Assembly: GCF_013315695.1 (NCBI RefSeq)
Contig: NZ_CP054353.1
From: Escherichia coli
GTDB taxonomy: Bacteria > Pseudomonadota > Gammaproteobacteria > Enterobacterales > Enterobacteriaceae
Length of the DNA: 64,000 nucleotides
Reading direction: 5' to 3' (one strand)
Shown here: piece by piece, positions 50,101 to 64,000 of the stretch
Layout of the letters: each line of letters begins with the position of its first letter
Numbering within the stretch: position 1 is the first letter of the stretch
Program-made: the position numbers

Positions 50101-53100
50101 TGGCATAAATGTCACAGAACGCCAGTAATAGCAAACCGCATACATCAAAAAACTAAATGTCACTAACAACCGCATGTCTATTTTGTTGCCATAACGTCCT
50201 ATCAAAGGTGAAATTAATAGTGGCATGATGCCGATGGGCGCATAAGCAAGTCCGGCCCATATCGCATTATACCCCATCGTTTCCTGGAGTAACTGCGGCA
50301 TAAGGACGATCGCTCCAGAGTAAAATAAATACGCGCATGTGATACTCACAATACCAATGGTGAAATTACGGGACTTAAACAAACTGAGATCAAGAATCGG
50401 GTTCTCTGAGGTCGACTCCCAAATGACTAAAGAGATCAGAGAAATAACTGATACTACTGTTAGTATTATTATTGTACTCGAGTTGAACCAATCCAGATCG
50501 CGCCCTTTATCAAGCATAATTTGCAAGCCACCAACACCGAGCACTAACAGGGTCAGTCCTGGTAGATTCATTTTGACCGGTGAAGTCTCAGTTTCTCTTC
50601 CTTTAAGTAAGGTTAAGCATAATGTCAGGACGATAATCCCCATAGGGACATTGATTAAAAATATCCAACCCCAGCTAAAGTTATCACAAATATAACCGCC
50701 CAATATCGGCCCACATATCGGCGCGATAATCACGGTCATAGACCATAATGCCAGAGCAAATGTTCTTTTTTCTGGTGGATAATTCCTTAATAATAAACTC
50801 TGTGACAGTGGAATTAACGGCCCCGCCATTAATCCCTGAACGACTCTAAAAAATATCAGCACATCAAGATTGGTCGATAAACTACACATTAAGGAAGACA
50901 GCGAAAAAAAAGTGACTGAAAGTAAAAATAACCTTAATTCGCCTATTCTTTGTGCCAGCCTGCCGGTAACAGGGATCGCAATGGCATTTGCTACGCCAAA
51001 CGAAGTGATAACCCAGGTGCCTTCGTCTGTTGATGCTCCCAGAAAGCCAGATATTGTCGGTATTGCGACGTTAGAAATAGTGGAATCCAACATTTGCATA
51101 AACGTCGCTAATGACAATGCAATAGTAACGCACCATAACGTCCCACCGGTTAATGGTGCCGGAGTTGATTTAGTGATTGCCATTAAAGTTGTCCATTATG
51201 CGAAATAATGTTGTTAATCTCTTTTTCTATCGGACTGGTATCGATAATTAAAGCCTTACTGGTATAAGCAGGCATGGACGTCACGGTTGAAGCCAGATCG
51301 GGCATATCGGCAATGTCTTCGTTCCTGGTATCAATAGTTGCAGTCATCGATAAACCAATGCGCAAGGGATGTTCCATGAGTTCTTTTGGATCAAGAGAAA
51401 CCTCAACCGGTACACGCTGAACGATTTTGATCCAATTCCCTGTCGCATTTTGTGCAGGTAATAAGGAGAACGCATTGCCGGTTCCCATATTGATCCCTGT
51501 CACCCGACCATGAAACACAACATTTTCACCATAAAGATCGCTAATAATATTGACCGATTGACCAATCCGCACATCCGTGAGTTGTGTTTCTTTAAAGTTG
51601 GCATTAACCCACATTTGACGTGCCGGTACGACAGCCATTAACGATTGTCCGGGACTCACTGTTTCGCCGACCTGAACGCTTCTCTGAGCAATATAGCCGG
51701 TAACAGGACTCTTAATATCCGTACGTTTAAGCGCTAACCAGGCTTCTTTGGTTGCATCCGCCGCTTCAACGACTTGTGGCTGACGGTTTAATGGTGTGTT
51801 CATTACTAAAGCTTTATTCGCTTTATAAGCCTGAATAGCAGCATTCAATGCCGCTTTGCTACTTATTAACGTATCTTTGGTATGCTCCAGCGTTTCTTTT
51901 GAAATAACCCCCTGCTTCGCTAAAGGTACACGACGGTTATAATCTTCTAAAGATTGTTGATACTGAATACGAGCTGAAGCGACTTCGGCACTGTATTGTT
52001 TATCCTGTAAGTACAGTTTATTCGTTTGCCGAACAATATTGGCCAGATTATTTTTAGCTTTATTGAGTGCGATAGTGGCATCAGTCTTATCCAGTGAGAC
52101 TAAAATGTCACCCTGTCGAACGTAGTTCGTATCTTTATGATTAACGACAGTGACGCTGCCTGAAACTTGTGCAGAAATTGGATCTGCATTCCCCGTGACA
52201 TAGGCATCATCTGTACTAATCATGTCTTCTAATTCCATTGACCAATAGGCATAGGCACCTGAAAACGCAATAAATAAAACTACCGCTAACAAAGCAAAAT
52301 ATTTTTTTCTGTCAGAATGTTTTTTATTTGAATTAATCTGTTCCACTTTTATCTCTCATTTCGCATAGATGAAATTTATGAATTGAATGAAAAGAGTATT
52401 CATTCTTCATATCAAACACAGTGCATGTGTTGCACATTATCCCAGGAACGTTGGAGGCCTAATTTAAATGAGGTGCAAAAAAAACAACAGAGGACTAAAC
52501 CGTGGCTTTTGCAATACAATTCTTACGCCTGTAGGATTAGTGAGAAGACTTATAGTGCTAATGTGAAACTATAAATCATCGGTATCATCCCTGATTTTAT
52601 TGTTGACATTTTATTTATGCCGACTATTTATATGGTATACTTGTCGAATTATCTTAAAGGAAGCTCAAATTTTCTTATTTTTTTGAGAAAATGAGATGAT
52701 GCCTTATGTCTGTATTACTACAGGGAGAAGGGAAATGCTTCATTGCAAAGGGAATAATCTATGAACGCAATAATTATTGATGACCATCCTCTTGCTATCG
52801 CAGCAATTCGTAATTTATTGATCAAAAACGATATTGAAATCTTAGCAGAGTTGACTGAAGGCGGAGGCGCCGTTCAGCGGGTGGAAACACTTAAGCCTGA
52901 TATCGTCATCATTGATGTCGATATCCCCGGAGTTAACGGTATCCAGGTGTTAGAAACGCTGAGAAAGCGCCAATATAGCGGAATTATTATTATTGTCTCC
53001 GCTAAAAATGACCATTTTTACGGGAAACATTGTGCTGATGCTGGCGCTAATGGTTTCGTGAGTAAAAAAGAAGGCATGAACAATATCATTGCGGCTATTG

Positions 53101-62100: not shown

Positions 62101-64000
62101 AGGAATATCTCGCAGCTGGTGACGCGTTACGTCACCAACGCCGGGACGTTCAATTTTAATGACGTCAGCGCCAAACCAGGCCAGCATCTGAGTACAAGAT
62201 GGGCCAGATTGCACACCGGTGAAATCGAGAACTTTAATTCCTTGAAGTGGAGTTGACATAGCAATACCTATTAGTTAATTAAATATGTGTTAATTTAGCG
62301 TTTATTTAAGGCATAACGCCCTCTATAAATAATCCGCAAAATATCGTCGTAGCTGCACTCGATATTTTTAAATTCCTGTATCAAGTACTGGAAATCATTT
62401 CATCGCCACTTCCAATTCCTTTCTGCATGGTAAGTAGTGAGGACGAAAAGAAGAATATGATAAATATTGGTTCGCGGTAATCAGAGAGAGCCGCGACATT
62501 TGTGATGTTATTCTTACAACTGTAAGAAGCGCCAGTGATTTACAAGTAAGGGTATGATTACGCTTTTAAAGCGTACCATAAAACATAACATAATAAATGA
62601 TTTGTGATAACACGGGATTATTGCGGTTTACTTTGAGGAAGATAAAATTCGAGTTTATAGAACCGCGAGCGCCAAATAATTTTATGGCCACAACCTGTCG
62701 TATTGTGGCCATAAAAAATTGTCGGCTGGAGGGAGTAAAATCCTTTACCTCAATATATTGCCTGTCAGCTTTAGTTCACAAACAGTGCTTCGCTATCGAC
62801 GATGATTCCATCTTCCGCACCTTTAAGCGCCAGGTTTGCCTCGTAGTATTGCTTTTTATCAAGCAGTTTCTGCGCATCAGCAAGTGCATTACGAGTCTGT
62901 TTAAGCGGCATCAGATATTGGTTTTCCATTACACCAACACCGGCCAGGCGAAGCTCTTCCATTGCGCCCTTTTTATCCCCTTTCGCCATTTTTTCGTTGG
63001 CAATTTTTATCGCGGCTTCTTTTTCGGGTGTCGCTACATAACTCTCAGAAATTCCGACAGATGCATTAATGACAATATATTGGTCATCATTGACATTGGT
63101 CTTTTTACCTGGCTTTGCGAACTTTGCCCATTCGGTACTGTCATCTGACAACAAAGCGGAAGCTTCATTGGTCAGTTCTTTTGCCTTTTCCGGATCGCCA
63201 TGAAACAGAGCCAGGCGCGCTACCTGCACGTCACGCATCGCATATAAACCTTGTTCAGAGATACGCTCTGCTGCTGCCGTTTGCTGAACTTGCTGAGTTT
63301 GCTGTTGTGCCGCTACCGGTGCATTATCAGCAGCCCATACAGTTGAAGATGCCAGAACTGCTGTGACCATCGTAGCCATAATTAAACGTTTCATACTTAC
63401 CTCATTCTTTAACAGTTTTAGAAAACGCCGCCATCATATTGGGTGAGCATGAAATGAGAAATCAGAGAGCAACGGACATTTTGAAAGGGTTATCTTACAA
63501 CTGTAGTTATTATCGCAAAGCGGCATTTAGTCTTACAGTTGTAGGAATATGCTTCCTGTCACAGAGAACTATTCTTATATACCAAAAAGAGATGTCATTT
63601 ATTATATCGATGTAAATACTGATTAATTATATGTAAATACAGCAATAACGTCGTAGGTTTTCAGTGAACCATTTTCAGGATAACTTTCTATGAAAGTAAA
63701 CTTAATGCTTTTTAGCTTATTTTTATTGGTCTCTATTATGGCATGCAATGTTTTTGCATTTTCTATTTCTGGTGGTGGTAGTGAGGCGAGCTATAAAGAG
63801 ACAGAAAAAACGTCAATGATGACGACAACTCATTCTACAAAATTTCAGCCATCACAGGCGATTTTGTTAAAAATGAGAGAAGATGCGCCACCATTAAACC
63901 TCACAGATGAAATTCCGCCCCCTTTTCCGACAAAGGCGAATTATCTTATCCATCCTGTGCGATAGCGTCTGTCACATGGCAGGTGAACAATCATGCCTGA

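Follow-up and report, generated by a model that had tools for sequence, protein, structure and literature searches.

The closest studied homologue of EvgAS is BvgAS of Bordetella. BvgA, a NarL/FixJ-class response regulator, activates sigma-70 promoters from an inverted repeat that lies upstream of -35, features that it shares with EvgA. BvgA promoters carry a primary site followed by a row of secondary low-affinity sites that runs down to -35, whereas no such row is detectable at the EvgA promoters considered below. The EvgAS regulon itself was described between 2000 and 2009, including the 18-bp box and its occurrences at emrK, yfdX and frc, and is in routine use in acid-resistance work. The E. 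coli K-12 box is said to read TTCPyTACA-N2-TGTAPuGAA, as reportedly given by Kato et al. 2000, Masuda and Church 2003, and Itou et al. 2009; the primary papers on EvgA are reportedly those of Kato 2000, Masuda and Church 2002 and 2003, and Itou 2009.

Later work ties these sites to gene expression. According to a passage of PMC3720670, inverted repeats in front of yfdX and yfdWUVE are bound by EvgA, and a passage of PMC8147483 describes EvgA binding at the promoters of yfdX and frc (yfdW). PMC4283999 reports the largest fold induction in an evgS-constitutive mutant for frc, singles out oxc as the EvgS-regulated gene with the strongest induction, finds emrKY induced as well, and places EvgA sites at known targets only. 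Acid also induces yfdX, frc, yfdV and oxc (PMC10746267).

The present strain matches K-12 in the motif, the genes and their relative positions. At the sites themselves the only differences from K-12 are in the 2-bp spacers of the yfdX pair, and the flanking intergenic DNA differs at roughly 3-5% of positions.

The evgAS cluster

The window analysed here is the whole 64-kb stretch of DNA, and its RefSeq record is 100% identical to it, so that the gene assignments made in an earlier note on this DNA could be checked against the annotation and proved right. The window is E. coli DNA with emrKY, evgL-evgAS, yfdE-yfdV-oxc-frc, yfdX and ypdI, and the relevant features of the cluster are as follows.

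49645-51183, minus strand: emrY, MFS multidrug efflux pump gene (RefSeq annotation, ORF)
51183-52346, minus strand: emrK, MFS multidrug efflux pump gene (RefSeq annotation, ORF)
52735-52764, plus strand: evgL, 9-codon leader ORF (annotated in K-12; sequence found in the window)
52761-53375, plus strand: evgA, Pfam Response_reg and GerE (receiver plus GerE/LuxR-type helix-turn-helix)
53380-56973, plus strand: evgS (RefSeq annotation)
57029-58174, minus strand: yfdE, oxalate/CoA-transferase gene set (RefSeq annotation)
58248-59192, minus strand: yfdV, oxalate/CoA-transferase gene set (RefSeq annotation)
59261-60955, minus strand: oxc, oxalate/CoA-transferase gene set (RefSeq annotation)
61009-62259, minus strand: frc, oxalate/CoA-transferase gene (Pfam CoA_transf_3)
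62680-62716, minus strand: terminator-like hairpin 3' of yfdX, between yfdX and the frc promoter
62771-63394, minus strand: yfdX, YfdX family protein (RefSeq annotation, Pfam)

The evgL stop codon overlaps the evgA start codon, and translational coupling of the two has been described (PMC11210196). The position of the hairpin argues that yfdX is a separate unit from frc; its stem shows a compensatory G:C to A:T change between this strain and seven other genomes. A search of the leaders and spacers from 52000 to 64000 for Rfam families returned nothing close to threshold.

The earlier note had described an EvgAS-controlled island of acid and drug resistance genes. The control by EvgAS stands (see below), but the word island overstates the case, since 5,418 of 5,426 complete E. 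coli genomes carry the cluster, at one place per genome. The annotation of the cluster lists no mobility genes. Its GC content is low (37-45%), which by itself is insufficient to call it an island, and the cluster is part of the core genome rather than a horizontally acquired or mobile element.

Four matches to the EvgA box

The earlier note had placed palindromes of the form TTCYTACA-N2-TGTARGAA upstream of emrK, upstream of frc (a perfect copy) and twice upstream of yfdX, and a pattern search allowing 0-3 mismatches finds exactly these four in the 64 kb. Bit scores and ranks in the list below come from a weight matrix whose training set consisted solely of out-of-window EvgA boxes, namely those of K-12 safA, ydeP and yegR.

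52520-52537: EvgA box in the divergent spacer between emrK and evgL-evgA, TTCTTACGCCTGTAGGAT, 2 mismatches, 18.0 bits, rank 3
62511-62528: EvgA box upstream of frc, TTCTTACAACTGTAAGAA, perfect, 22.3 bits, rank 1
63492-63509: proximal EvgA box upstream of yfdX, weak, ATCTTACAACTGTAGTTA, 3 mismatches, 14.4 bits, rank 4
63530-63547: distal EvgA box upstream of yfdX, strong, GTCTTACAGTTGTAGGAA, 1 mismatch, 19.8 bits, rank 2

The frc box is the sole perfect palindrome among the EvgA boxes examined. The first box lies in a divergent spacer and is therefore equally upstream of evgL-evgA.

Intergenic DNA of this kind is AT-rich, and the palindromes might be functionless chance matches. Shuffled windows hold 0.55 matches on average, and four or more at up to three mismatches do turn up in 1 of 100 shuffles; moreover, the proximal yfdX box taken singly falls in the chance range, with 0.2 sites expected per 64 kb at 14.4 bits. 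The independent matrix nevertheless places the four boxes at ranks 1-4 of the whole window, 3.7 bits clear of the fifth position (10.7 bits). The best score in 100 simulated 64-kb sequences averaged 12.9 bits and never exceeded 17.8, so that every box other than the proximal yfdX one outscores all 100 simulated windows. Furthermore, all four sites are situated in the promoter spacers of genes for which induction by EvgA has been reported; the dependence of these promoters on EvgA or EvgS (emrKY, frc, oxc and yfdXWUVE) is taken from the literature.

Conservation of the half-sites

The boxes were compared across eight Escherichia genomes, including one divergent lineage (L006) that is only 83-88% identical to the window in its intergenic DNA. 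The set stands at eight because a search of genome contigs with EvgS recovered mostly paralogous hybrid kinases, and L006 was the only true divergent orthologous locus. Variable columns are 3 of 64 within the specified box positions versus 237 of 1,148 (21%) at other intergenic positions (p = 0.001), and the 2-bp spacers vary at 5 of their 8 positions. All four boxes are kept in L006, which carries a perfect box at the emrK position. The 16 specified bases of the frc box are invariant in the eight genomes; there, as at the distal yfdX box, variation is confined to the spacer, and the proximal yfdX box varies at 1 of its 16 specified positions. The half-sites are thus constrained and the central dinucleotide varies freely, the pattern of selective constraint that fits an EvgA box. 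A chance origin does not account for conserved half-sites amid variable spacers and flanks, L006 included, and the conservation and the matrix scores together effectively refute it; its remaining probability is vanishingly small.

A second possibility is that the sites are real operators whose main binder is some other LuxR/FixJ-family regulator of acid or envelope stress, such as RcsB, GadE or YdeO. The half-sites of the RcsB box (TAAGAA / TTCTTA) look like the outer portion of an EvgA half-site, a likeness known from general background that lends this idea some appeal. A title cited in the reference list of PMC8147483 also concerns regulation of Klebsiella yfdX by RcsB. The idea is nonetheless very improbable: all operons listed as direct targets of EvgA share the 8-2-8 arrangement, induction follows evgS-constitutive alleles, and the passage of PMC3720670 mentioned above attributes these inverted repeats to EvgA.

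The identification of the sites as EvgA boxes under EvgAS control therefore draws support from the ranking by an out-of-window matrix, from the pattern of conservation, and from the published statements (PMC3720670, PMC8147483 and PMC4283999). The four 18-bp inverted repeats are very probably EvgA operators at the promoters of emrKY/evgAS, frc-oxc-yfdVE and yfdX.

The genes of the cluster were also said to form a compact regulon. The regulon is not confined to the locus, since the same box stands upstream of yegR, ydeP and safA-ydeO, which are unlinked loci in K-12.

Predicted geometry of the EvgA promoters

A putative register common to the EvgA promoters emerges when emrK, frc, yfdX, safA, ydeP and yegR are compared. 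In a weighted -10 scan, a -10-like hexamer begins 53-54 nt past the box in all six (P = 0.0005), so that safA-ydeO, ydeP and yegR share with the window both the 8-2-8 palindrome and this distance. Such a fixed register would not be expected of chance matches. The register is anchored by the ydeP leader of 178 nt used in PMC11210196, with which it agrees, as it does with the promoter-scan match at yfdX; the ydeO probe in that paper clearly does not mark a start, so the ydeP probe end at -178 is perhaps not a mapped start either. From the fixed register, the box is predicted to be centred near -74.5, and the following elements are predicted in the window, together with an emrK start at about 52454.

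62452-62457, minus strand: predicted frc -10 hexamer TATTCT, placed by the fixed register; start expected at about 62445
63433-63460, minus strand: predicted yfdX core promoter TTCTCA-16-TATGAT, placed by promoter scan and register; start expected at about 63426

The predicted yfdX core promoter is invariant in the eight genomes. An alternative placement, in which the box is centred near -49.5 and a conserved TC.TATTT patch 26-33 nt past the box serves as the -10 element, was dropped on account of the weighted scan at 53-54 nt and the agreeing ydeP leader coordinates. With the 53-54 nt register, this patch coincides with -35 and the bases that directly precede it.

BvgA-like secondary sites were sought between box and promoter at the six promoters, and every 18-mer there scored negative. 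No offset was enriched beyond shuffles (best sum P = 0.05, with all scores below 0).

The distance from box edge to start codon is 251 bp at frc and 97 and 135 bp at yfdX; for the one box in the divergent spacer it is 173 bp to emrK (GTG) and 223 bp to evgA (ATG). The earlier note had called the frc site unusually far from its gene, a remark that does not survive comparison with ydeP, where the distance is likewise long (243 bp), or with evgA. These distances argue that the frc value reflects a long leader, predicted from the register at about 186 nt. The 251-bp gap would then consist of about 66 bp of promoter and this leader, much like ydeP. The evgA starts used in PMC11210196 lie about 110-120 bp downstream of the emrK/evgA box, so that the box is less clearly implicated in autoregulation than in the control of emrK.

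The favoured model of these promoters is as follows. Active EvgS, under mild acid, would give rise to a phosphorylated EvgA dimer on each 8-2-8 palindrome, with one helix-turn-helix per half-site and presumably no contacts with the bases of the central dinucleotide. The bound dimer would activate the weak sigma-70 promoters downstream, serving emrKY (and perhaps evgL-evgAS from far upstream), frc-oxc-yfdV-yfdE, and yfdX. With its centre near -74.5, the box would lie about 30 bp upstream of -35, an upstream position like that of a class-I activator, and this geometry would be common to emrK, frc, yfdX, safA, ydeP and yegR.

The paired boxes at yfdX

The safA-ydeO, ydeP and yegR promoters have one box each, versus two at yfdX, where the proximal and distal boxes are 38 bp apart from centre to centre. 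One might suppose that only strong boxes work, so that the proximal box, with its 3 mismatches and 14.4 bits, has decayed and the distal box alone drives yfdX. Recombination between the two boxes would be in keeping with such a history, and a duplication of 38 bp is in fact seen in 414 genomes. It is the proximal box, however, and not the distal one, that holds the register of the five other promoters; the spacer downstream of it is paralogous to the frc promoter spacer; and across the eight genomes it varies at a single specified position of its 16. A decayed proximal box is accordingly unlikely. The favoured model is instead that the weak proximal box occupies the activating register and that the strong distal box probably helps to load it.

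The duplication noted above is a tandem one that provides a third box upstream of yfdX, and its carriers are 414 of 5,426 genomes (about 7.6%). It argues that the two yfdX boxes are able to recombine with each other. Variation in the copy number of this 38-bp repeat could tune, as a natural dial, how strongly EvgA drives yfdX. In a search for the converse deletion to one box, with one spacer variant tried, the best junction matches were ordinary two-box promoters.

The predicted frc leader

Even in the divergent lineage, the first part of the predicted frc leader hardly varies; it carries two GGA motifs and is able to base-pair with frc codons 3-7. It could therefore act in post-transcriptional control, for instance as a target of CsrA or by folding so as to occlude the start region. 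The joint suggestion of a repeat dial at yfdX and a control element in the frc leader, both possibly undescribed, is a tentative one with a small chance of being right. A 15-codon ORF in the leader (62428-62381, minus strand) was considered as a leader peptide and rejected, its coding potential being without support. It has no Shine-Dalgarno sequence, and all six differences in the divergent lineage alter an amino acid or abolish the stop codon; codons 1-7 are invariant at the nucleotide level.

Conclusions

The EvgA boxes and their regulon are textbook material that had already been described, and the finding is therefore correct but ordinary; as a discovery it matters little. It does illustrate that a real regulon is recoverable from raw sequence, and it corrects the remark about frc, whose box lies at a distance that is normal for the EvgA regulon. 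The predicted constant spacing between box and promoter, like the variable repeat at yfdX, is among the small additions that are usable in work on the architecture of EvgA promoters.

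Four EvgA boxes in a core-genome cluster

The window is Escherichia coli DNA. Several clinical isolates match its positions 52000-64000 with 100% identity, and the gene table was taken from the RefSeq annotation of one of these.

Genes of the region (RefSeq; evgL as annotated in the K-12 record)
49645-51183, minus strand, emrY
51183-52346, minus strand, emrK
52735-52764, evgL, 9-codon leader ORF (MLHCKGNNL), intact in the window
52761-53375, plus strand, evgA
53380-56973, plus strand, evgS
57029-58174, minus strand, yfdE
58248-59192, minus strand, yfdV
59261-60955, minus strand, oxc
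61009-62259, minus strand, frc
62771-63394, minus strand, yfdX
63690-63965, plus strand, ypdI

Pfam assigned a receiver domain and a GerE/LuxR helix-turn-helix to EvgA, and identified YfdX as a YfdX-family protein and Frc as a family III CoA-transferase; an Rfam search of the region found no RNA family. The evgL stop overlaps the evgA start codon, and the evgA leader of the window strain has a 1-nt deletion near 52683 relative to K-12. The cluster, rather low in GC content, was found in 5,418 of 5,426 complete E. coli genomes. It is therefore core genome, not a mobile island; the earlier note had called it an island.

A search of the 64-kb window with the pattern TTCYTACANNTGTARGAA, allowing up to three mismatches, returned exactly four matches, the same four that the earlier note had claimed.

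EvgA boxes in the window
52520-52537, emrK/evgA spacer, 2 mismatches
62511-62528, frc, perfect palindrome
63492-63509, yfdX proximal, 3 mismatches
63530-63547, yfdX distal, 1 mismatch

Dinucleotide shuffles gave a mean of 0.55 matches, and one in 100 reached four. K-12 has EvgA-type boxes away from this locus as well, in front of safA, ydeP and yegR. A symmetric weight matrix trained on only these three sites and then run over the window scored the boxes better than background, placing them first to fourth in the whole window (22.3, 19.8, 18.0 and 14.4 bits), with the fifth position at 10.7 bits. The top scores of 100 simulated 64-kb sequences averaged 12.9 bits and never passed 17.8, so that three of the boxes exceed all chance output; at the score of the yfdX-proximal box, about 0.2 chance occurrences are expected per window. 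The observation of four EvgA-box palindromes is confirmed.

Conservation of the boxes

The three intergenic spacers were aligned across eight genomes, namely the window, K-12, five more E. coli picked to span the identity range, and a divergent lineage (L006) with 91% identity in EvgS protein and 83-88% in the spacers. Only 3 of the 64 specified box columns vary (16 positions in each of four boxes), as against 5 of 8 columns in the central dinucleotides and 237 of 1,148 in the rest of the spacers (Fisher tests: box versus rest, p = 0.001; dinucleotide versus box, p = 0.0002). Constrained half-sites around a free centre are the pattern expected if a helix-turn-helix dimer reads a pair of 8-bp half-sites and makes no use of the two bases between them. 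L006 accounts for two of the three changes within boxes, and with these its emrK/evgA box becomes a perfect match.

The L006 contig (NZ_JAATUR010000016.1) is labelled E. coli SCPM-O-B-8794, and the whole emrKY-evgAS-yfd cluster is syntenic in it. None of the 5,426 complete E. coli genomes has so divergent a cluster, and for this reason the lineage probably represents a cryptic clade of Escherichia or a species of its own.

Promoter geometry

The frc site had been called unusually far (about 250 bp) from its start codon. The distance is right, at 251 bp from box edge to ATG, and is not exceptional: the corresponding distance is 243 bp at ydeP and, from the shared emrK/evgA box to the evgA ATG, 223 bp. 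When the six gene-proximal boxes were aligned on the box, a weighted -10 scan found a -10-like hexamer beginning 53 or 54 nt past the box in all six (emrK TAAATT, frc TATTCT, yfdX TATGAT, safA TATATT, ydeP TAATTT, yegR TATTAT; shuffle test for register, P = 0.0005). The emrK, frc and yfdX hexamers are invariant across all eight genomes.

The 178-nt ydeP 5' leader used in published work (PMC11210196) puts the start 66 nt past the box and 7 nt beyond the hexamer, from which we infer a geometry with the box centred at -74.5; the -178 probe end may not be a mapped start. The same register predicts three starts in the window.

Predicted transcription starts
near 62445, minus strand, frc, leader ~186 nt
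near 63426, minus strand, yfdX, leader ~32 nt
near 52454, minus strand, emrK, leader ~108 nt

A generic promoter scan independently returned TTCTCA-16-TATGAT at the predicted yfdX promoter. The evgA leaders of 114 and 124 nt (PMC11210196) place the evgA start at ~52648, the 1-nt deletion being allowed for, with the box ~110-120 bp upstream. Whereas BvgA promoters have secondary sites, no secondary EvgA-like sites were seen between box and promoter at the six promoters.

The yfdX and frc units

A terminator-like hairpin with a 15-bp stem follows yfdX (62680-62716, minus strand; hairpin scan). One stem position is G:C in the window strain and A:T in seven other genomes, with both arms altered (GGCC...GGCC versus GACC...GGTC), a compensatory change that supports a real hairpin structure. 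Because of this hairpin, yfdX and frc-oxc-yfdV-yfdE each have their own predicted EvgA-dependent promoter, as is also stated in the literature (PMC3720670). At yfdX the weak proximal box holds the canonical register and a strong distal box stands 38 bp farther upstream, which makes cooperative loading a reasonable inference.

The box-to--35 stretches of neighbouring promoters are paralogous (window 62478-62510 and 63459-63491; K-12 locus L002 3039-3071 and 5698-5730), frc and yfdX being identical at 20 of 35 positions in register and safA and ydeP at 24 of 35. This likeness between sequences suggests that each pair arose by duplication.

Folding of the predicted frc leader is somewhat more favourable than that of shuffled sequences (z = -2.0), and coding constraint is not evident in the short ORF within it. 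The predicted frc core promoter and first ~50 nt of leader (62395-62470, minus strand) are almost invariant even in L006, and the next ~85 nt vary freely. This conserved stretch contains AAGGAATTGGAAG, in which the GGA motif occurs twice; minimum-energy folding pairs GGAAGUGG with the CCACUUC of frc codons 3-7.

Variation in other strains

In strain STEC379 (L088, NZ_CP091024), 38 bp of the yfdX promoter are duplicated in tandem (L088 11804-11893; the orthologous segment of the window is 63492-63547). The period equals the spacing of the two yfdX boxes, and a third, hybrid box results. The junction is present in 414 of 5,426 complete E. coli genomes, a few with more than one, and we found no published description of this duplication. 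The same strain has ISApl1 between evgA and evgS (634-1608) and frameshifts in both evgS and yfdE; judged from these lesions, the sensing arm of this carrier of a three-box promoter is decayed. In strain ESBL 15, oxc is frameshifted. A 551-bp contig in a Firmicutes assembly (Terrisporobacter petrolearius NZ_JAHZMO010000116.1, coverage 0.75) encodes an EvgS fragment with 94% identity to the E. coli protein and is almost certainly E. coli contamination.

Relation to the known regulon

Matches to the EvgA pattern with two and three mismatches lie inside the K-12 coding regions of mdtE (L004 4887-4904) and ydeO (L002 2130-2147), genes of the EvgA/YdeO/GadE network; both are probably due to chance. 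No box with three or fewer mismatches was found upstream of gadE, which is listed in the literature as bound by EvgA.

In an evgS-constitutive mutant the largest fold increase was seen for frc, oxc (yfdU) was described as having the strongest induction of the EvgS-regulated genes in arrays, emrKY was listed among the induced genes, and EvgA sites were found at already known targets only (PMC4283999). In published ribosome-profiling data, acid induces yfdX, frc, yfdV and oxc. The perfect palindrome fronts frc, the gene with the highest fold increase reported for the evgS-constitutive mutant. Apart from "unusually far" and "island", the EvgAS-regulon interpretation is supported and, since published work already describes this regulon, the finding is its correct rediscovery.
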